Part shown: piece after piece, positions 1,541 through 13,444 of the stretch
Position numbering within the stretch: the stretch's first letter is position 1
Layout: each line of letters opens with the position of its first letter
DNA from: a virus
Taxonomy: Duplodnaviria; Caudoviricetes
Direction: 5' to 3' (one strand)
Length of the DNA stretch: 29,138 bases
IMG/VR virus record: IMGVR_UViG_3300031519_000152
Coordinates: 1 to 29,138 of that record
The notes under the pieces: model-generated
Told to the model about the DNA's origin: nothing
The model's database searches: none
The model's input: the letters and a program-made list of their open reading frames with translations, nothing else
Program-made: the position numbers and the translations under genes

Positions 1541-2437
1541 CTAGCTTGCGTTAGTAAACTTAACACCTTTCTTATTATCAGAATCATCAATCAATTTAAC
1601 CCCGTATAATAAATCAGATACAACTTTTGTACCTAAAGCATCAACAGAATACTCTGACTGAACCCTTACTTCTTGCTGTGAAGCAAAAACACAAGCTGAT
1701 TTATGAAAGATTGCACCAGGAATTGTAGTTGCTGTACCACCAGTTGAAACTGTATTGCTCATATATACGTCGATTCCATATAATGATCCAACCATTCCCG
1801 ATCTTAGTCCACGATTTCCTTCACCGACAGCATCATTACGAATAAAATACTGTGCTATACCAGCAGATGGGTTAAGTATATCTGCAAATAAAGTTGGATT
1901 AACAACCATAGCACATTCACCGTCCATGTAAGGAATGTCTGCTTCACCTAATGTAGCAAGAGCAGATTCAAATACAGATGCAGTTAATGTATCATCAGCA
2001 GATAATGCCTGAGAAGCATTTAGTCCATCTAACTCACCCCAAATATCAGTATCTACCTGACGAGCAAGAGCTTCACCCATCATTCTTGAATACTTAGCTA
2101 CTAGATCAGCCTCAGACTGAATCAAAGCTACATCTTCAAATAACTTTGCAACATACTTGTGCTTGTTAATTGATAGCTGAGTTGTAGTGGTTGCAGTTGC
2201 ATCATAGGATACATCTGATCCTGCTGATTTATCTGAAGCACTAATTAAACTCATTTCTGGAATGTTGATTGCATCTCCATAGCCTTTTGATCCAACTAAT
2301 GCTGAATAGTCATCTATAAGACCTCTAAATACACTTTTACGCTCAAAGTATTTATAGATACCATCTGCCCAAATTTCTGGGATAAAATGCTGATCTGTTG
2401 TAGTAGTTACTGGACTACCTTGATAATGTATTGCCAT
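1541..2437 (-). CDS. Major capsid protein (HK97 fold, P22-coat-like)
   Basis: 298 aa with N-terminal FIPEIWA, GDAINIP, ALARQVD and GMVGSLYGIDVYMSN, and C-terminal DLLYGVKLI; follows a scaffold-like gene. Confidence 0.9.
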   Translation of the reverse strand: MAIHYQGSPVTTTTDQHFIPEIWADGIYKYFERKSVFRGLIDDYSALVGSKGYGDAINIPEMSLISASDKSAGSDVSYDATATTTTQLSINKHKYVAKLFEDVALIQSEADLVAKYSRMMGEALARQVDTDIWGELDGLNASQALSADDTLTASVFESALATLGEADIPYMDGECAMVVNPTLFADILNPSAGIAQYFIRNDAVGEGNRGLRSGMVGSLYGIDVYMSNTVSTGGTATTIPGAIFHKSACVFASQQEVRVQSEYSVDALGTKVVSDLLYGVKLIDDSDNKKGVKFTNAS

Positions 2438-2442
2438 TTAAT

Positions 2443-2946
2443 TTACCTTTTAATGTATGAATCTAGTATGGATTGCCAATTACTTCTTCGTTGATCTTCT
2501 GGCATAGAAACCCAATCAGCAGGCGTACCTGAAGGTATAGTCCCTTTTCTATCTGGTGGGTTTTGTTTTTCTACTTCAGAAAATTCTTCAACGATGTTTA
2601 GAAGTATATCAGTATCAACACTAGCAAATTTTTCTCTTTTAGATTCAGGAAGTCTAGCTAAAGCTGTTTCACGAAGTCTATTGTCCATATCTTCCCATTT
2701 TTCTTTATAACCTTTATAGGAATCTACTTCTTTTACTAGCTCAGAGTTTAACTCTTGCCATTTCTCTTCTTCTTGTAGCTTTGCTCTTCTTTGATCTTCC
2801 TCTTTTGTTGCAAAGGCTTTCATCTGATCTCGTAAATCATTACGTTCAGTTATTACTTCATTAAGCCTCGTTAGTGGTACATTGTGTGCGTCTTGTGTGA
2901 CGGATTCCTGTTTTACATCTGGCTCGATGTTTTGTTCTTCGGACAT
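2443..2946 (-). CDS. Capsid scaffolding protein
   Basis: Acidic coiled-coil 167 aa protein with VPLTRLNEVITERN motif, directly upstream of the capsid gene; GAGG RBS. Confidence 0.8.
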   Translation of the reverse strand: MSEEQNIEPDVKQESVTQDAHNVPLTRLNEVITERNDLRDQMKAFATKEEDQRRAKLQEEEKWQELNSELVKEVDSYKGYKEKWEDMDNRLRETALARLPESKREKFASVDTDILLNIVEEFSEVEKQNPPDRKGTIPSGTPADWVSMPEDQRRSNWQSILDSYIKR

Positions 2947-2987
2947 TTTTACCTCTTAAGTGAGTTGGTTAATTGCAAGAATAAACC

Positions 2988-3037
2988 TTGCATTAAATAG
3001 ATAGTATAATGTAAGTTATAAAAGTAATCTAATGCAA
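2988..3037. promoter_or_regulatory. Overlapping divergent sigma70-like promoters for terL (+) and scaffold/capsid (-)
   Basis: Plus: TTGCAT(2988-2993)-N18-TAAGTT(3012-3017). Minus: TTGCAT(3037-3032)-N18-TACATT(3013-3008). The region is bounded by the inverted repeat CTTGCATTA/TAATGCAAG. Confidence 0.55.
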
Positions 3038-4345
3038 GAAAAAAATTACGAATTTAAAAGAAAATGGTTTGACTATCTAGGATACGAACCACACAATGGG
3101 CAATTAGCACTTCATTACCCTCAGAAACAAGATGCTAGATTTCAAGTAGTAGTCTGTGGAAGAAGATTTGGGAAAACTTGGGCAAGTGCTATGGAGGCAA
3201 CCTTTGTTGCATCTCAGCCTAATAAACGTATTTGGCTTGTAGGGATGTCCTACAGAAAGGCTAGATTAATATTTAGAGAAGTGTGGCAACGAATGGTTAT
3301 AGGTCATGGAGAAGATGTAGATAAAGCATCTGAAAAGGATATGTACATCCGTTTCAAATGGGGTACTACTGTTGAGGGAATGTCGGCAGATAATCCAGAT
3401 TCTCTTGTGGGTGAAGGTTGCGACCTCTTGGTTATAGATGAGGTAGCCAAGATGAATAAAAAGATTTGGGATATGTATTTATCTCCAACAGTTGCAGGAA
3501 GAAAAGGAAAAGTTATTTTTATTACAACTCCAGAAGGAAGAAACTGGATATACGATTTGTTTAAACTAGGAGCAAATGATCCGTTATGGTCAAGTCATAC
3601 ATCTCCATCTTGGGTAAACCAGTATGAGTTTCCAAAAGGGTTAGATGATCCTGCTATTATAGAAAGAAAAAGAAATATGTCAAAAGAACTATTTGGTCAA
3701 GAGTTTGGGGCAGAGTTCTCTGTATTTGAGGGAAAGGTTTGGGATTTTCATAGAGATGAAGATGTTGGAGATTTCCCGTATAATCCTAATCTGCCTACTT
3801 ATTGCACTATTGACTTTGGCTATCGTATGCCCGCTGTAATGTTTTGTCAAACATACTGGGAAGATAATGTGGAGCATATTAGAGTATTTGACTCTATCTT
3901 GCATAAACAGAATATAAAGACAGAAGATTTAATAAAGATGATAAAGACTAAAGGCTATCCTGTAGCCAGTTACTATGGTGATCCTGCTGGAGCGAATGTT
4001 CAGGGGCAGAGTGGAGCAGGGGATATGGAAATCTTTAGAAGAAGTGGGATTAAAGTAATATCAACTAGAGATCGAATGAGTAGGAATATCGTAGCTAGTG
4101 TTGCCTATACAAGAGGTTTTTTTGAAAGTGCTAATGGTGTAAGGAGAATCCATGTGGATAAAAGATGTGCAGATGTAATAGAAGATTTTGAAGAATATAG
4201 ATACCCAGAAAGTGAAGATGGCAAACCAATTAAAGAAGAGCCTGTTAAGGATGGATACCACGATCATGGAAATGATGCCTTTAGGTATTTTATTATTAAC
4301 AGATTCCCAATGAAAAACACAGAAATGAAAAGGATTCAAAGATGA
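3032..4345 (+). CDS. terL: Terminase large subunit
   Basis: Walker A CGRRFGKT, Walker B LLVIDE, coupling motif ITTPEG, nuclease IDFGY and C-terminal DHGNDAFRY. Confidence 0.95.
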   Translation: MQEKNYEFKRKWFDYLGYEPHNGQLALHYPQKQDARFQVVVCGRRFGKTWASAMEATFVASQPNKRIWLVGMSYRKARLIFREVWQRMVIGHGEDVDKASEKDMYIRFKWGTTVEGMSADNPDSLVGEGCDLLVIDEVAKMNKKIWDMYLSPTVAGRKGKVIFITTPEGRNWIYDLFKLGANDPLWSSHTSPSWVNQYEFPKGLDDPAIIERKRNMSKELFGQEFGAEFSVFEGKVWDFHRDEDVGDFPYNPNLPTYCTIDFGYRMPAVMFCQTYWEDNVEHIRVFDSILHKQNIKTEDLIKMIKTKGYPVASYYGDPAGANVQGQSGAGDMEIFRRSGIKVISTRDRMSRNIVASVAYTRGFFESANGVRRIHVDKRCADVIEDFEEYRYPESEDGKPIKEEPVKDGYHDHGNDAFRYFIINRFPMKNTEMKRIQR

Positions 4346-5649
4346 TCAATCAAATGATGAAAGATAAGCTACTAGAAACAAAACTTATGATGTCTCATGG
4401 CAGGAGAAGTGAAATTAGAAAGTATTTGGATTACTATTCAAGTACATCTACTGAAAGTTATATAAATAACTACTTTAGTGGTGATGCTTTTTCAGAAATC
4501 CCGCCAAGTCTTACTAACTTTACGAGAAAATTTGTAAACAAAATTAGTAGAATATACAGTTTAGGTGCTAAGAGAAACGCTGGAGACATGACTGAACGTT
4601 ATGAGCTTTTAACTCCTACTAAAGATGTTAGGATGAAGCACTCAGAAAGAATGACTAGATTATTGGGAACTGTAGCTAATCGTATTCATTGGAGAGAAGG
4701 ATCATTTGATTATAGACCTATATACTACTTCGAGACTTACTTTGGAGAAAATCCTTTTGTTCCAGAGGCTATTGTGTATCCATTGTTGAATAGTACGGCA
4801 GACTTAGCTAATGCCGACAATCTTCAATGGGAATATTGGGATGCAGAGACATACGGCATTTTAAACGAAGAGGGGAATATGATTGAGGAAATGGAAAACC
4901 CTTATGGAATATTACCTTTTGTATTTACCCATAGAGAAGATCAAATAGACTCTTTCTTCGTAGAAGGAGCATCCGATATTGTAAATTGCAATGAACAAGT
5001 AAATATTGCTTTAACTGAAATGAACTTAGGCATGAGATTTAATATGTTTGGACAGCCTTGGGTTACAGGGCTAAGAGCAGACCAGAGTATGCTTAGAGCA
5101 GGATCAAATACAATCCTAGATATGGGAGAAGATGGTGCTTATAACATCACTAGCCCTAATGGTAATATAGAAGAAGCTATCAATAATATTAAGTTTCAGA
5201 TAGAGCTTGTAGCATCTAATAATCACTTGTGGATACAATGGGCAGAAAGTGGTGGTGAAGTTCCTAGTGGTATATCACTTATGATTAAAGATATGGAGCG
5301 TAAAGAGGACTATTACGATGATATAGCTTTATGGAGATTATACGAACAAGATTTTTATAGGGTAGAGCGTGCTATAGCAGAATATAATGGTATTGCACTA
5401 CCAGAAGAGTTTGGCGTAGACTTCCAAGAAGTAGAATACCCAAAGACAGTTCAAGATCAGATTCTCAAAGATGAGTTTGATATAAAAAATAATCTCGTAA
5501 CTAGAGCTAAAATTATGGTTAGAGATAATAAAGACTTAACAATTGAACAGGCACAGGCAATTATAGATGAAAACAAAAAAGCAAACAAAAAAGAAGGAAC
5601 TGAGTCACTCTTTACTAACTTCCGTAAAGAAACTGGACAAGATCAATAA
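4342..5649 (+). CDS. Portal protein (SPP1-like)
   Basis: 435 aa, ATGA-coupled to terL, with ENPYGILPFV and SGISL motifs typical of SPP1 gp6-like portals. Confidence 0.88.
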   Translation: MINQMMKDKLLETKLMMSHGRRSEIRKYLDYYSSTSTESYINNYFSGDAFSEIPPSLTNFTRKFVNKISRIYSLGAKRNAGDMTERYELLTPTKDVRMKHSERMTRLLGTVANRIHWREGSFDYRPIYYFETYFGENPFVPEAIVYPLLNSTADLANADNLQWEYWDAETYGILNEEGNMIEEMENPYGILPFVFTHREDQIDSFFVEGASDIVNCNEQVNIALTEMNLGMRFNMFGQPWVTGLRADQSMLRAGSNTILDMGEDGAYNITSPNGNIEEAINNIKFQIELVASNNHLWIQWAESGGEVPSGISLMIKDMERKEDYYDDIALWRLYEQDFYRVERAIAEYNGIALPEEFGVDFQEVEYPKTVQDQILKDEFDIKNNLVTRAKIMVRDNKDLTIEQAQAIIDENKKANKKEGTESLFTNFRKETGQDQ

Positions 5650-5812
5650 TGTTGAGTTCGAGTTTAATGGAGATTTAGATTTTATTATTAAAAACCCTTT
5701 AGCTTGGGCAGATAGTCAAGTTAAAAGAGCTATTCTTGAAAATACAGATAAGTACCTAGAGTCTAAAGCGTTAGGAAAGGAATTTTGGAATGAAGTTGAA
5801 AGTAAAAGTTAA
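5567..5812 (+). CDS. Hypothetical protein (head block)
   Basis: 81 aa ORF filling the gap between portal and the next gene; overlaps portal by 83 nt, so the start is uncertain. Confidence 0.55.
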   Translation: MKTKKQTKKKELSHSLLTSVKKLDKINNVEFEFNGDLDFIIKNPLAWADSQVKRAILENTDKYLESKALGKEFWNEVESKS

Positions 5813-6215
5813 TTTTGATTTTGGTAAAATGGCTAGGGCTATTCCTGAAGCTATTTCAAGATATACTGAGGGATTTGCAGTTAAGTCGGCAGAAGCATCA
5901 AAAAAAAATATAGATTCTGGGCTTCAGCCTGACTTGCAAGATTCTACTAAACAAATCAGAAGCAAAAGAAGCCAACCTAAGAATCCACCATTGAAAGCTA
6001 GTGGGGCATTATACAATAGTATTAAGCAGGAAGGGAATAAATTAACGATGCTACCTTATGGAAATTTACATCATAAAGGTTTTACAACAGGGAGTTCTTC
6101 TTGGATTCCAAATAAAAAAGTTCCAGCAAGACCTTTTATATCAACTTCAGTAAAGAATAGAAAAAAAATAACAACTCAATTTATGCGAGTTCTTAAAAAA
6201 GCATTAAGGAAATAA
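5790..6215 (+). CDS. Phage virion morphogenesis protein (Mu gpG / tail completion-like)
   Basis: Basic 141 aa protein with PLKASGALYNSI, YGNLHHKG and VPARPFI motifs; AAGGA RBS. Confidence 0.75.
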   Translation: MKLKVKVNFDFGKMARAIPEAISRYTEGFAVKSAEASKKNIDSGLQPDLQDSTKQIRSKRSQPKNPPLKASGALYNSIKQEGNKLTMLPYGNLHHKGFTTGSSSWIPNKKVPARPFISTSVKNRKKITTQFMRVLKKALRK

Positions 6216-6216
6216 A

Positions 6217-6684
6217 ATGCCAAAAACCAAGGAGAAATTAGATGAAAAAGACAGAAGAGTATTATTTTCAATTGCTACTACAATGTCTCATGATGTTAGA
6301 GTCTTTAGTGAACGAATTAGACAAGAAATTGGAAGACTCGTTGGAGCTGGGGTCAATGAACAATCAATTGCTGGGATTCTTAGCCAAGACTTTAGCACCT
6401 ACGGCAGAATCTTCGGAGAATTTAGAAATGCCATTAAACGTGGAATTGTGGGAGGAATTAATCAAGCATTCAGGCGATCTGGGGATATGGGGGGAAAGCT
6501 GAAATGGGTTGCAATATCTAAGAATGTCTGTAGTGATTGTGAGAAAAGAGCTGGCGAAATTGATACTTGGGAAGGTTGGGAGGCTAGAGGTATGCCAGCT
6601 AGTGGATGGAGTGTTTGTAAAGAATATTGTTATTGTCAATTAATGCCTGCTGATATGAATGTTAAGGATAGTATGAAGTTATGA
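6217..6684 (+). CDS. Mu gpF / SPP1 gp7-like head morphogenesis protein (short form)
   Basis: C-terminal KWVA...VCSDC...G...P...CKEYCYCQLMP resembles the Cys-rich Mu F domain; lies downstream of portal. Confidence 0.7.
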   Translation: MPKTKEKLDEKDRRVLFSIATTMSHDVRVFSERIRQEIGRLVGAGVNEQSIAGILSQDFSTYGRIFGEFRNAIKRGIVGGINQAFRRSGDMGGKLKWVAISKNVCSDCEKRAGEIDTWEGWEARGMPASGWSVCKEYCYCQLMPADMNVKDSMKL

Positions 6685-6842
6685 AGAAATACTTAATTAT
6701 GCAATGTCTTTGTTTAGGGTGTAATTGGTTTTGGGAAGTAGTGTCTACTAAATTCAATAACAAAAAAGAACAATGCCCTAATTGTAAAGGATTTTCTGTA
6801 AAAACAGCTTTAAAATTACCCATAGTCTCAGAAGAGGCATAG
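6681..6842 (+). CDS. Small zinc-ribbon protein (53 aa)
   Basis: Below the ORF track cut-off. ATGA-coupled, AAGGA upstream; MKKYLIMQCLCLGCNWFWEVVSTKFNNKKEQCPNCKGFSVKTALKLPIVSEEA has two CxxC pairs. Confidence 0.7.
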   Translation: MKKYLIMQCLCLGCNWFWEVVSTKFNNKKEQCPNCKGFSVKTALKLPIVSEEA

Positions 6843-6844
6843 TT

Positions 6845-6962
6845 ATTAGATATATCTATTATATATATGTAATATATATGTACCTCGTCTCAGCCCACTA
6901 ATTTAACTTATATAGGCATTAAAACTGCATAGAGCAAACGTACCCCATGTCATACAAGAACA
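6845..6962 (-). repeat. Origin-like cassette, copy A (inverted homologue of 13784-13905)
   Basis: The reverse complement reads TGTTCTTGTATGACATGGGGTA-N42-GTGGGCTGAGACGAGGTACAT followed by an AT tract, matching blocks and spacing inside the initiator gene. Confidence 0.6.
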
Positions 6963-7612
6963 CTAGTCTTTACGTTTAATGCTTTTTCTCTTGCTTCTAC
7001 TTTGTCCTGCCAAATTTTTCTTTGAGCTTTTGTTTGTCTACCTTGTGCTGGTTTTTCTACCCCTACGGCTTCTGCTCGCTCTCTCCAATGCCTAGCCTCT
7101 CTCCGTTTCTTATTCCTAGCTTGTTTATCCTTTAACTGTTTCATCTCTTGCCGTTTTGAGAGATTCTTTGGGGGTAATACGGGACGTTCTGGTAAGACTG
7201 TGAACTCAGGCTCGACTTCTTCAACTTCTGCATCAATTACGGCAATTTCTTGCATATCTGATGATTGCGTATTTAAAAATTTTTCAAATGGACTCTGATT
7301 GTTTGCTACTTCTACTCGTTTAATGAGTTTACCTGAATGTTCTAGCACTAATCTACCAGCCTGTACATTACCAGCCTCTGCTTCTCGTATCATACTATGT
7401 AATACATTGGGTAGTTTAGCTCCAAATGTAACCATATACTTCTGATAAAATACTTCTACAAACTCAGGGTCTTTCATCCAGTTGTGAAGTGTAGCTTTTG
7501 TGACTCCGATTTCATTGGCAAGTTCTTCCATTTTGGTATTCGGATTAGATACAAGTATATCAATTGTCCTAGCTTTCTCAGGTTTCCAATTTGTTGGTAA
7601 ATTAACACTCAT
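6950..7612 (-). CDS. terS: Probable terminase small subunit (N-terminal HTH)
   Basis: Start moved to ATG 7612 (AAAAGGA RBS, promoter upstream). HTH KMEELANEIGVTKATLHNWMKDPEF, then AEAGNVQAGRLVLEHSG, typical of TerS; basic C-terminus. Confidence 0.7.
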   Translation of the reverse strand: MSVNLPTNWKPEKARTIDILVSNPNTKMEELANEIGVTKATLHNWMKDPEFVEVFYQKYMVTFGAKLPNVLHSMIREAEAGNVQAGRLVLEHSGKLIKRVEVANNQSPFEKFLNTQSSDMQEIAVIDAEVEEVEPEFTVLPERPVLPPKNLSKRQEMKQLKDKQARNKKRREARHWRERAEAVGVEKPAQGRQTKAQRKIWQDKVEAREKALNVKTSVLV

Positions 7613-7640
7613 TTCATATAGTCCTTTTAAGTTATGGTAT

Positions 7641-7670
7641 ATTATACAACCACTTGGTACTTTTATACAA
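7641..7670 (-). promoter_or_regulatory. Sigma70-like promoter of terS
   Basis: TTGTAT(7670-7665)-N18-TATAAT(7646-7641), about 30 nt upstream of ATG 7612. Confidence 0.6.
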
Positions 7671-7856
7671 GAGACTTTATAGTCTATTATTCCATCTAAA
7701 TCCAAATAAGGCATAATACATAGTATACAACATACAAACATAAAACGGAGTTTTATTGGACTTTCTTTTTAAAACTTTTTTTCTCAACCCCATGCAAGAC
7801 TTTGTTTTCATTTTATTTATGAGGAATGGCAGTTAACCAACACCTAAAAATCTTCA

Positions 7857-8361: not shown

Positions 8362-8389
8362 TTGCACTCTTAAAAATTTGTTGTATCTT
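8362..8389 (+). promoter_or_regulatory. Candidate early promoter
   Basis: TTGCAC-N16-TATCTT, followed by a small GGCA-ATGA-TGCC hairpin (8398-8409) and the AAAGGA RBS of 8434. Confidence 0.45.
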
Positions 8390-8433
8390 ATCGGGTCGGC
8401 AATGATGCCCGCAGTTCAGACAAAGGAAATAAC

Positions 8434-9108
8434 ATGAAAACAGCAAGTAAAATAAAAGAAGTTGTGAAAAAGAAAGCTAGTAAGAAATCTCCAGTTAGGT
8501 TGGTTGATTTTCCTGTAGATGTAAAAAAGCCCAGTAAAGCTGTATTAACTCAATCCAAGGAAGTAACAGCCAAACAAGTAAAGGAAGTTATCGAAATGGG
8601 TTTGAATACAATGAACATCGAGAAGACCATGACCGATGTAATTGTAAGAGACTTTGATAACAGAAACGAAAATGATTCTCTTCTAACTACTGAGTTAAAT
8701 GAAATTTTTAAAACTGGTGATGAGAGAAAAGTAACAAAGGTTAAGAAATGGGTTAAAACTAGACTTCAAACACTTATCAAGAACCCACCAATACAAGAAC
8801 GTCTACTAGGTGAAAAAGTCAAAGAGCAACAAATCACCATTAAAAAAGTCACTAAGCCAATGGTGGACAATGTCGAGGGTATTTACTTAGATAATTTTAA
8901 TGAGTCTGACCTAGGGCAATTCAAAACAATTAGAATCAGTAAAGTAAAAGAGGAATTAACAATTGCCGAGGAGCTTTTAAAATGGATGAGATCAAAGAAA
9001 AGTGACGGGCTTTTCACAGGCGATAAAACACAGATGAAAGATATTGACTGTTATGACCTTGAAGCGGTTATCGCAATCGCTGAAAGCATCAAAAAGAACG
9101 GGCTCTAA
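8434..9108 (+). CDS. First early gene, hypothetical protein (224 aa)
   Basis: Long ORF with AAAGGA RBS, Lys-rich; no family recognised. Confidence 0.85.
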   Translation: MKTASKIKEVVKKKASKKSPVRLVDFPVDVKKPSKAVLTQSKEVTAKQVKEVIEMGLNTMNIEKTMTDVIVRDFDNRNENDSLLTTELNEIFKTGDERKVTKVKKWVKTRLQTLIKNPPIQERLLGEKVKEQQITIKKVTKPMVDNVEGIYLDNFNESDLGQFKTIRISKVKEELTIAEELLKWMRSKKSDGLFTGDKTQMKDIDCYDLEAVIAIAESIKKNGL

Positions 9109-9195
9109 ATCCTGCTGATGATGGGGGGTTTTCAATTGAACCCCCCGAAACAAGAAAAGTTTATTAACTTAACTTTTTTTGTCTAGGTATCAATT
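9109..9195 (+). ncRNA. Type I hammerhead ribozyme
   Basis: Stem I CCUG(9111-14)/UAGG(9184-87); core CUGAUGA(9115-21) plus one extra U; stem II GGGGGGUU/AACCCCCC; GAAA(9147-50); 12 bp stem III (9150-61/9171-82); GUC cleavage triplet at 9181-83. Confidence 0.9.
9155..9177. promoter_or_regulatory. GTTAA-N5-TTAAC palindrome, site 2 (coincides with ribozyme stem III)
   Basis: AAAAGTTTATTAACTTAACTTTT (one core mismatch). Confidence 0.55.
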
Positions 9196-9217
9196 AAATA
9201 AATAAAGGAAAAATAAA

Positions 9218-9598
9218 ATGCAATTAACAAAAAAGTTTTTAATAGCAACAGAAGATAACAAAATACTAGGAACGATAGACCTGCCAAATGGTTTTGACTT
9301 GGTGAATATTGATTCTGAAGAGTTAGAAGAAATGAGAATCCAATTTATAGAAAAGTTTTTTAATGATCTTTTTGATGATCGATCCCATGGCTATTTAGTC
9401 AAATTCGATTTTCTATTTCCTTTTTTAAAGGGAAGTGCCAGTGGAATTGGAATTTGGGATCGTGAGATAGGGGTAAATTTTAAAACCGCTCAAGCTTTCG
9501 CAAATGTTGAAATTTATGGCGATGATGGGATGATGACTTTCCATATAATAGAAATTGAGACATTAAGAAATTTAACTCAAATCAGTAACTCAATCTAA
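9218..9598 (+). CDS. Hypothetical early protein
   Basis: 126 aa, AAAGGA RBS, acidic. Confidence 0.8.
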   Translation: MQLTKKFLIATEDNKILGTIDLPNGFDLVNIDSEELEEMRIQFIEKFFNDLFDDRSHGYLVKFDFLFPFLKGSASGIGIWDREIGVNFKTAQAFANVEIYGDDGMMTFHIIEIETLRNLTQISNSI

Positions 9599-9608
9599 AG
9601 GGGACAAC

Positions 9609-9923
9609 ATGAAACAAACAGTAAATGAATACCAATTCAGAGACGCTTTTCTAGGCTCTGACACTTATAAGAATAAATTTTCATATGATGGATTAACTGC
9701 TCTTTTTGAATGGATGGAGGAATATGAAGAAAGCACAGGATCAGAATTAGACTTTGATATGATCGCCATTTGTTGTGAGTTTTCAGAGTATGAAAACTTA
9801 GAAGAGTTTAAAGAGTCTTATTCTGATGGTGAAGTAAACAGAGTTACAAGTCCCGAACAATTGGAGGACTGGACAACAGTGATCATGATTGACGATGAAT
9901 CTTTTATAATTCAGGACTTTTAA
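9609..9923 (+). CDS. Highly acidic early protein (DNA-mimic candidate)
   Basis: 104 aa, 27 D/E versus 6 K/R by manual count; FSYDGLTALFEW and DMIAICCEFSEY motifs; AAGGGGA RBS. Confidence 0.8.
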   Translation: MKQTVNEYQFRDAFLGSDTYKNKFSYDGLTALFEWMEEYEESTGSELDFDMIAICCEFSEYENLEEFKESYSDGEVNRVTSPEQLEDWTTVIMIDDESFIIQDF

Positions 9924-9945
9924 AAGATTATAAACAACCCTTAAC

Positions 9946-9972
9946 AAGCTGACTCATTTAGTCGGCTTTTTT
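9946..9972 (+). terminator. Rho-independent terminator-like hairpin
   Basis: AAGCUGACU-CAUUU-AGUCGGCUU followed by UUUU; flanking ACCC/GGGU can extend the stem, so it could also be a processing stem. Confidence 0.7.
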
Positions 9973-9996
9973 GGGTATAAATACAAAGGGAATAAA

Positions 9997-10077
9997 ATGA
10001 AATTATTTATTAAGATCATAGAAATTTATATATTTTATATTTTTACAATTAGTTTATTAATTAGAATAATTTTTTAA
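9997..10077 (+). CDS. 26 aa hydrophobic peptide
   Basis: AAAGGGA RBS then MKLFIKIIEIYIFYIFTISLLIRIIF; below the ORF track cut-off. Confidence 0.5.
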   Translation: MKLFIKIIEIYIFYIFTISLLIRIIF

Positions 10078-10078
10078 A

Positions 10079-10101
10079 AATAGTTAAGGGGCTTAACTTT
10101 T
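10079..10101. promoter_or_regulatory. GTTAA-N5-TTAAC palindrome, site 3 (covers the RBS of 10100)
   Basis: AATAGTTAAGGGGCTTAACTTTT, perfect core. Confidence 0.6.
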
Positions 10102-10564
10102 GAAATACTCAGAAATAAGAAAAGAAATTGACAAGAATTATAAGCATGATACAAATTTTTGTACTGTGGTTGCGTCCTCTGTGGCTTTTGATTTGCCATT
10201 TGAATTAGTGCATGAATTTTATTCAGAGCATGGGCGAGAATTAAGGAAGGGATTACTGCCCGACAAAACCGATGAAATGATTTTAAAACTTGCTGAAATT
10301 ACAGGTTATAAAGTGAGTTGTTTTTCACCCGACAGAAAGCACAAATATTTAACGGGGTTTTCTAGGTGGGTGAATCATAAAGGCGAAATTTTAACCCAAT
10401 TAAAGCACTCTTTAACGCCAAATAATGCCGAGGCTTACTTGCCCCTAGGTAATTACATTTTAGGCGTAAGAAGGCACGTTTTAGGCGTTGAAAATGGTAT
10501 TGTTCAAGATTGGACACAGGGCAAAAAACATAAAATTAACAGGGTTTGGAAAATAGAAATTTAA
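10100..10564 (+). CDS. Phage protein with a putative Cys-His-Asp (papain/C39-like) triad
   Basis: TTG start with AAGGGG RBS; NFCTVVASSVA...GR...G...RHVLGVENGIVQDW. Confidence 0.7.
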   Translation: MKYSEIRKEIDKNYKHDTNFCTVVASSVAFDLPFELVHEFYSEHGRELRKGLLPDKTDEMILKLAEITGYKVSCFSPDRKHKYLTGFSRWVNHKGEILTQLKHSLTPNNAEAYLPLGNYILGVRRHVLGVENGIVQDWTQGKKHKINRVWKIEI

Positions 10565-13400: not shown

Positions 13401-13444
13401 AAGTGGATTCATAGGGGGGTTATTTCCTTTTCTCCCCTCCACTT
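13401..13444 (+). ncRNA. Leader hairpin displaying an anti-Shine-Dalgarno loop
   Basis: AAGUGGA/UCCACUU plus GGGGGG/CUCCCC stems with loop UUAUUUCCUUUU; 13419-30 is the exact reverse complement of 8422-33. Confidence 0.55.

Follow-up and report, generated by a model that had tools for sequence, protein, structure and literature searches.

The early mRNA of phage T7 is cut between its genes by RNase III. Protein-free processing has been proposed for hammerhead ribozymes that flank prophage genes and would divide transcripts into operon- or gene-length mRNAs (Perreault 2011, PMC3088659). The parts of that paper drawn on here report tandem phage hammerheads that cut polycistronic RNA in vitro and in E. 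coli, a halovirus transcript with an end located no more than 3 nt from a hammerhead cut, pseudoknots in all three hammerhead types, a rate gain from such pseudoknots, and U10.1-U11.1 mismatches. What self-cleaving ribozymes do in bacteria and phages is largely elusive according to the consulted part of PMC6765202, where processing of polycistrons is suggested and left undefined. Here we analyse an element of this kind in an entire 29,138-base contig of an uncultured tailed phage (IMG/VR record IMGVR_UViG_3300031519_000152; hereafter the window), namely a complete type I hammerhead at 9111-9187 on the plus strand, between two genes of unknown function, orf1 and orf2. We put the probability at roughly 70% that this is a genuine type I hammerhead which cuts the polycistronic phage message just past the orf1 stop codon in a processing or insulation role, a reading drawn from comparison of sequences.

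The window element resembles the phage and prophage hammerheads of Perreault 2011 in its type I topology, its consensus core, its intergenic position near small phage genes and a pseudoknot in the stem I/II region. The occurrence of several hammerheads per operon is also shared with that set, which includes a halovirus example 13 nt before a start codon (PMC3088659). Unlike the described set, the family of the window escapes Rfam 15, stem I begins at the upstream stop codon and a nucleotide inserted at position 9a comes and goes. Because phage hammerheads, their pseudoknots and the processing idea are already in print (PMC3088659), the window ribozyme is no novelty of kind, and the first-pass annotation of this DNA rated its novelty too highly. 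The junction occupied by the ribozyme is of wider interest, since in related phages the same two genes are separated by a hammerhead, by a bulged hairpin, by a tRNA mimic or by nothing. These natural matched alleles turn an old processing proposal into a testable matched comparison, and their study also brings to light two RNA elements that no Rfam family covers, together with a family of phage hammerheads missed by standard annotation.

The window hammerhead and its orthologues

The 5' strand of stem I (9111-9114, G9114 being position 2.1) begins 2 nt past the orf1 stop codon (TAA, 9106-9108). It is followed by the catalytic core C3-U4-G5-A6-N7-G8-A9 (9115-9121), as read from the sequence and by a descriptor, and by the extra U at position 9a (9122), between A9 and G10.1. 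Stem II and its loop occupy 9123-9146 (8 bp, 9123-9130 with 9139-9146), the core strand G12-A13-A14-A15.1 lies at 9147-9150, and stem III (9151-9183) consists of 11 bp (9151-9161 with 9171-9181, one of them G-U) plus the A15.1-U16.1 pair (9150 with 9182), ending in G16.2-U16.1-C17. The predicted cut falls between C9183, which is C17, and 9184, 34 nt before the orf2 start codon at 9218; the 3' strand of stem I (9184-9187) provides the first bases of the predicted 5'-OH downstream product. Loop II nucleotides 9134-9138 are complementary to 9191-9195 in the 3' tail, and this pseudoknot can be extended via 9139 and 9190 (tail strand 9190-9195). The topology is that of type I, with stem I open and loops closing stems II and III. 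The nucleotides by which PMC3088659 defines the class in the part used here (C3-A9, G12 A13 A14, A15.1-U16.1 and H17) are in place, as are the core-adjacent pairs 1.1-2.1, 10.1-11.1 and 15.1-16.1, the 2.1-1.1 pair being G-U and the extra U preceding 10.1. All of these parts, the insert, the loop-tail complementarity and the cut after C9183 had been claimed by the first-pass annotation, and each was recovered at the place it had given.

The type I descriptor, run over both strands of the window, matched at this site only. Some match arose in 16 of 200 dinucleotide shuffles at loose settings and in none (0/200) when stems of at least 4/6/6 bp were demanded. The folding z-score is -3.1, and nearest-neighbour folding gives stems II and III pair probabilities of about 1.0. 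A check against the Rfam hammerhead models, suggested by the first-pass annotation, came out negative: Rfam 15 gave no match at gathering score in the window, and none of the 6 matches with E<=10 in 8900-9400 belonged to a hammerhead model. The exact pattern of core, extra U and stem II occurs in 37 viral loci, duplicates included, of which 32 parse as type I hammerheads (30 with a stem I of at least 5 bp); by eye, a start codon follows closely in many of the 37, as does a stretch of tail complementary to loop II. Rfam likewise misses the hammerheads at 11 loci from relatives; run on 20 of the 37 pattern-matched, unrelated phage loci, it found no hammerhead and only a twister. The miss in the window is therefore a gap of the models, and for want of a match at gathering threshold we assign the element to the hammerhead class and not to an Rfam family. 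Scanning of 9109-9217 called no sigma-70-like site on the plus strand and no intrinsic terminator on either strand, the promoter scan being at chance level (12 versus 9.9 +/- 3.2). A reading of the hammerhead hairpins as a terminator was rejected, as no U tract follows the G-C-rich stem II and no terminator was called.

Relatives were collected by a TerL search, from which 80 of 204 loci (84-100% identity) were kept. A scan of viral contigs with the single orf1 protein gave no match; an alignment of 16 orf1 proteins led to 48 viral and 54 metagenome loci. An orf1 homologue is encoded in 122 of the 184 sequences searched. Leaving out the window's own record (L167) and two truncated loci gave 119, some of them duplicated, with 70 distinct orf1 3' junctions. 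Hammerheads occupy 42 of these, 39 found by script and 3 added by eye. The core consensus is kept in 41 of the 42, the remaining one (L217) carrying a U4C variant, and the cleavage triplet is GUC in 34, GUA in 6 and AUA in 2. A U-U mismatch at 10.1-11.1 occurs in 4/42; the junctions of L184, L139, L151 and L180 form a subgroup that combines U-U at 10.1-11.1 with a GUA triplet. The first four stem I pairs are paired in all 42, with several pair types, and the core-proximal one is A-U in 36 and the G-U of the window in 1. C3 lies 4-12 nt downstream of the orf1 stop codon, at 5-7 nt in 37/42.

Covariation was assessed in 20 of the 42 members, a subgroup with short stem I picked by eye. Stem I is 100% paired in these, with 2 of its 4 pairs changed on both sides, and the pseudoknot forms five pairs (92 of 98 cells paired), 4 of them changed on both sides. 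Sliding the pseudoknot register lowers pairing to 26-43%. A sixth pseudoknot pair was considered and dropped, being paired in 7/20 and not conserved. For 34 distinct loop/tail pairs the complement averages 4.53 nt versus 3.49 +/- 0.15 nt with permuted partners (0/5000), and the next 12 nt downstream, taken as control, yield 3.53. Two further marks of the class, covariation of stems in homologues and a tertiary contact between stem I and the stem II region (here a predicted pairing), are found as well. The covariation in related phages that the first-pass annotation had named as a check is present in both stem I and the pseudoknot. This comparison shows selection for the core, the stems and the predicted loop II/3' tail pseudoknot of 5 bp, all of them kept on the coding strand and at a fixed place.

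Position 9a behaves differently. Inserts at this position are known from PMC1636495; an extra U raises the rate 3-4-fold in a viroid hammerhead (CChMVd plus strand; PMC3705267, as excerpted), and hammerheads of Penelope-like elements conserve a residue between 9 and 10.1 according to the part of PMC4209133 used. The insert of the window sits at the same position as in these, between A9 and G10.1. Unlike them, it belongs to a DNA phage, and only 10 of the 42 orthologues carry an insert after A9 (9 U, 1 A). L168 and L169, at 98-99% orf1 identity, lack the extra U, and L170 has it. Relatives whose orf1 is 93-99% identical already differ in its presence, and the orf1 tree described below shows 9 changes. 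We consider it tolerated and not defining. The weight laid on it by the first-pass annotation was too great, and as a defining novelty it was rejected.

Hammerheads stand on both sides of orf1 in L087 (13087 and 13741), L095, L097, L183 and L141-L148, an arrangement that would free a single-gene mRNA. A Twister-P5 ribozyme (61 bits) was found on the minus strand at L005:47-101; that strand also carries a type I hammerhead at a distance of about 1.4 kb.

Fillers of the orf1 3' junction

The 70 distinct junctions comprise 42 hammerheads, 16 bulged hairpins, 6 tRNA mimics, 4 plain hairpins and 2 empty junctions, the hairpin classes having been assigned by eye from predicted folds. The next gene is readable in 65/70 and is an orf4 homologue in 55, orf2 in 6, orf3 in 1 and another gene in 3. 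The 55 orf1-orf4 junctions contain 34 hammerheads, 12 bulged hairpins, 5 tRNA mimics, 3 plain hairpins and 1 empty junction; the same two genes are therefore flanking different fillers. In the window, orf2, orf3 and a bulged hairpin (9937-9976) lie between the hammerhead and orf4. A maximum-likelihood tree was computed from the 70 orf1 proteins (214 columns; unrooted, gain and loss being indistinguishable, and with long branches flagged); it requires 9 changes of the hammerhead label, 7 of them forced by well-supported branches. The bulged hairpin requires 4 and the tRNA mimic 3, all classes together at least 11 against a minimum of 4, and the grouping of all hairpin carriers in one clade is rejected (p-AU 8e-42). 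In the surroundings of orf1 in the 70 loci, the patterns of the three elements, which were derived from coding-strand copies, gave 103 matches on the coding strand and 0 on the opposite one, and the elements occur in several copies per genome. Loss of the core with retention of only the G6/C6 hairpin, which the first-pass annotation had named as evidence against a ribozyme, was looked for in relatives and not seen; those without the hammerhead carry a different element.

The element found instead of the hammerhead in relatives also has a copy in the window, the bulged hairpin at 9937-9976 (plus strand). This copy has a lower stem (9937-9940 with 9973-9976), an internal loop, a 9-bp upper stem (9946-9954 with 9960-9968) and a 5-nt loop, and it matched no Rfam family at gathering score. 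Among 32 distinct copies the 5-nt loop is found in 30. In an alignment of 29 copies (two with other loop lengths and one near-duplicate were left out) the upper stem is 98.9% paired and 6 pairs are changed on both sides, and the lower stem, which lies beyond a U run, has at least 3 bp in 29/29 (mean 3.9 versus 2.7 and 3.15 in controls). In RNase III sites as characterised in the relevant part of PMC1540722, internal loops confine the cut to a single bond, and a protective 3' hairpin is left. The bulged hairpin may be an RNase III-like site or a weak terminator. It would be a structural analogue of the T7 R1.1-type RNase III sites, and its roughly 13-14 bp fall short of the two helical turns that substrates of the E. 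coli RNase III typically have.

The tRNA mimic, which is absent from the window, consists of an acceptor-like stem, a short linker with GG and a T arm with T loop, with one unpaired base and no anticodon arm. From 19 T-loop matches 12 were aligned, leaving out two apparent full tRNAs, one chance match, three divergent copies and one near-duplicate; the 11 pairs of the 5 + 6 bp are 100% paired (n = 12) and 5/11 are changed on both sides. ACCA is frequent, and complete only in some copies. The pattern occurs in 33 viral loci. Rfam returned weak similarity only (tmRNA 3' end, mascRNA), and ARAGORN, run on 18 loci, did not call the mimics as tRNAs (1 spurious call). Hairpins made of an acceptor stem and a T arm are cut by RNase P (PMC11143913, in part). 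Substrates of this kind have coaxial acceptor and T stems, a T loop and a 3' RCCA. [quoted passage not shown] Copies are located at L199:874-927, L192:972-1025, L082:9418-9471, L086:9235-9288 and 9347-9400, and in L221-L253, and the element was also seen in unrelated phages, at times several per contig. Apparent full-length tRNA genes are present in the early region of two relatives (L121:3580-3630 and L175:4540-4590, plus strand).

A swap of a hammerhead with nuclease-site-like elements at one orthologous junction, as observed here, is not described in the portion of PMC3088659 consulted, and no passage on tRNA-like or RNase III/P elements was found in the main text of Weinberg 2017 (PMC5737381). 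A search by title and beginning of the abstract, in a field where subscription papers largely lay outside the search, gave no paper on such an exchange at orthologous phage junctions. A related case is that of the PeSL cassettes of T4-like phages, which are likewise small exchangeable intergenic modules in variable early regions; PeSLs consist of promoter and terminator (PMC2839356, in part), whereas in the slot of the window no promoter was found and the filler is a catalytic RNA.

RNA processing and competing explanations

For the hammerhead we propose that the pseudoknot would dock stems I and II, whereupon the RNA would cleave itself 3' of C17 to yield a 2',3'-cyclic phosphate and a 5'-OH, as is established for the class. 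Stems II and III would stay with the orf1 piece and protect its 3' end. The downstream piece would begin with a 5'-OH, and its short leader would contain a ribosome-binding site of its own; the distance from cut to next start codon is 34 nt in the window and 16-38 nt (median 25) in 41 of the 42 members. Both pieces would then presumably decay and be translated independently. 5'-OH ends resist 5'-monophosphate-dependent decay. The hammerhead would be a functional analogue of the R1.1-type sites of T7, differing from R1.1 processing in being protein-free and in its predicted 5'-OH rather than 5'-phosphate. That the hammerhead really is self-cleaving we regard as very probable.

We further suggest that the junction may be a general slot for processing or insulation, filled in other lineages by the RNase III-site-like hairpin or the tRNA mimic. 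The former would be cut by host RNase III and the latter by RNase P, with a like job. The idea of the first-pass annotation that the ribozyme stands in for nuclease processing gains support to this extent, because elements resembling substrates of the two nucleases occupy the same junction in relatives. The full proposal is that one orthologous junction in a widespread group of uncultured phages serves as a modular RNA-processing slot with three interchangeable, unrelated cutters, i.e. the hammerhead, a new RNase III-type family of bulged hairpins and an RNase P-cut tRNA mimic without anticodon; we would give it even odds. If true, the ribozyme would punctuate mRNA independently of the host, and what intergenic ribozymes do in phages would become apparent from the natural swaps.

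Several observations weigh against these proposals. Stem I of the window has 4 bp, and its core-proximal pair G9114-U9184 is a wobble. The minimum-energy nested fold lacks stem I, whose probability is 0.02 in a model that leaves the pseudoknot energy outside, and an alternative pairing of 9110-9113 with the ribosome-binding site is predicted in uncut RNA; in the same nested model, stem I reaches only 0.02-0.16 in the five relatives tested that have A-U at the core-proximal pair. The descriptor partly imposes the pair counts of stems II and III and the first three stem I pairs (not the pseudoknot), and the permutation tests and alignment counts are uncorrected for kinship among relatives. In the data of PMC3088659, as far as used here, 4 of 18 tested consensus hammerheads were inactive. 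The empty (2/70) and plain-hairpin (4/70) junctions suggest that some lineages do without the slot or manage with a simple one, so a cut is not always needed. The lower stem of the bulged hairpin shows little covariation, with a nearly invariant 3' side, 4-6 U lie within 8 nt past the last G-C pair, and the scan scored the element as terminator-like. Finally, RNase P cutting 5' of the tRNA mimic would strip the orf1 RNA of its 3' hairpin, and the products of the three fillers would therefore not be identical.

Among the other explanations the best surviving one, which we nonetheless consider unlikely, is a regulated switch with conditional cleavage: a ribosome terminating on orf1 would cover stem I and part of the core, and cutting would couple translation of orf1 to release of the next gene. 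The distance of C3 from the stop codon, 5-7 nt in 37/42, fits this, although such tight spacing may be plain genome compaction. In the window stem I is weak and its 5' strand can pair with the downstream ribosome-binding site as long as the RNA is uncut; the Shine-Dalgarno-like purine run of orf2 (9204-9209, plus strand, located by script), which potentially pairs with 9110-9113, is predicted to be unpaired at 0.35 before and 0.86 after the cut. This site opens by more than 0.1 in 16/41 members and closes in 1, but 24/41 show no such change, a shorter RNA is trivially more open, and the predictions were made without the pseudoknot. Moreover, close relatives (L168, L170) show exchanges of both the leader and the gene downstream. 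If processing takes place as we assume, the position on the stop codon might still link cutting to translation of the upstream gene.

Slightly less probable is that selection keeps a stable structure after orf1, as a barrier to 3' exonucleases or a partial terminator, with uncut hairpins and a hammerhead whose cleavage is secondary. Every filled junction indeed has a strong structure right past the stop codon, four of these being plain hairpins, and the bulged hairpin with its U run was called terminator-like. On this view, however, conservation of core and pseudoknot is difficult to understand, as they are needed for fast cleavage only, and the hammerhead lacks a U tract behind the G-C-rich stem II and received no terminator call. 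The fixed geometry of the bulged hairpin, with its almost constant loop and a lower stem beyond the U run, and the preservation of T loop and 5 + 6 bp stems in the tRNA mimic likewise weigh against this view.

That the fillers are mobile or recombination cassettes, i.e. short repeated modules that spread among junctions and offer crossover points for gene shuffling, cleavage being of little benefit, appears improbable. Several copies per genome, repeated swaps, differing gene content right behind the element in near-identical phages and the precedent of the PeSL cassettes (PMC2839356, in part) are in agreement with it. The copies diverge in sequence while their structure is kept, which is the opposite of what homologous recombination requires; PHROG and Pfam scans found no mobility gene near the slot, and the orientation is strictly that of the coding strand. 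Recombination may explain why fillers are exchanged, but not why they stay. A chance match or dead relic, to which the missing Rfam match and the unique G-U pair might point, is hardly credible in view of the clean shuffles (0/200), the compensatory changes in orthologues and the equal failure of Rfam on 11 related and 20 other phage hammerhead loci.

Genome surroundings

The window encodes capsid, terminase subunits, tail proteins, endolysin, primase/helicase and a replication initiator, all matched by PHROG or Pfam. From 8434 onward a series of small genes of unknown function runs on the plus strand up to the replication genes, a region that we label early from its gene content. The first-pass annotation placed the ribozyme between the first two early genes; this holds for their position in the window, whereas in relatives other small genes often lie upstream of orf1. 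The marker gene orf1 (8434-9108, plus strand, 224 aa), at whose 3' junction the element lies, has no PHROG or Pfam match and matched unnamed viral clusters only. On the same strand follow orf2 (9218-9598, 126 aa), which is replaced by other genes in close relatives, orf3 (9609-9923, 104 aa; phrog_9974, unknown function) and orf4 (10100-10564, 154 aa; phrog_3754, unknown function), with which orf1 is usually paired. For orf4 the Atlas search points weakly to Peptidase_C39, in 11% of one cluster, and to DUF261, in 32% of another.

Searches for a cultured relative found none, the DNA search being at chance level and orf1 giving none; among the matches listed, the best cultured ones reach 30-33% for TerL and 26-29% for the capsid. 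A single 3.3-kb contig in a Flavobacterium bin is insufficient for naming a host. PHROG and Pfam scans of 51 open reading frames (ORFs) detected no T7-type RNA polymerase.

Some minor features were noted in addition. Promoter-like hexamers below the scan threshold and a short hairpin lie upstream of the orf1 ribosome-binding site (8362-8416, plus strand), and similar hexamers were seen by eye in L059 and L061. A hydrophobic 26-codon ORF (9997-10077, plus strand), under the size limit of the ORF list, lies 3' of the bulged hairpin, and by eye similar short ORFs seem to be present in relatives. The ORF list also includes a minus-strand ORF of 53 aa at 8992-9153. A G-C-rich hairpin (13403-13443, plus strand) is located immediately upstream of the replication initiator gene. 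The packaging genes (1541-7741) stand in an unusual order, with the capsid gene on the minus strand, the TerL block on the plus strand and a TerS-like gene on the minus strand, and the TerL-TerS arrangement is kept in relatives.
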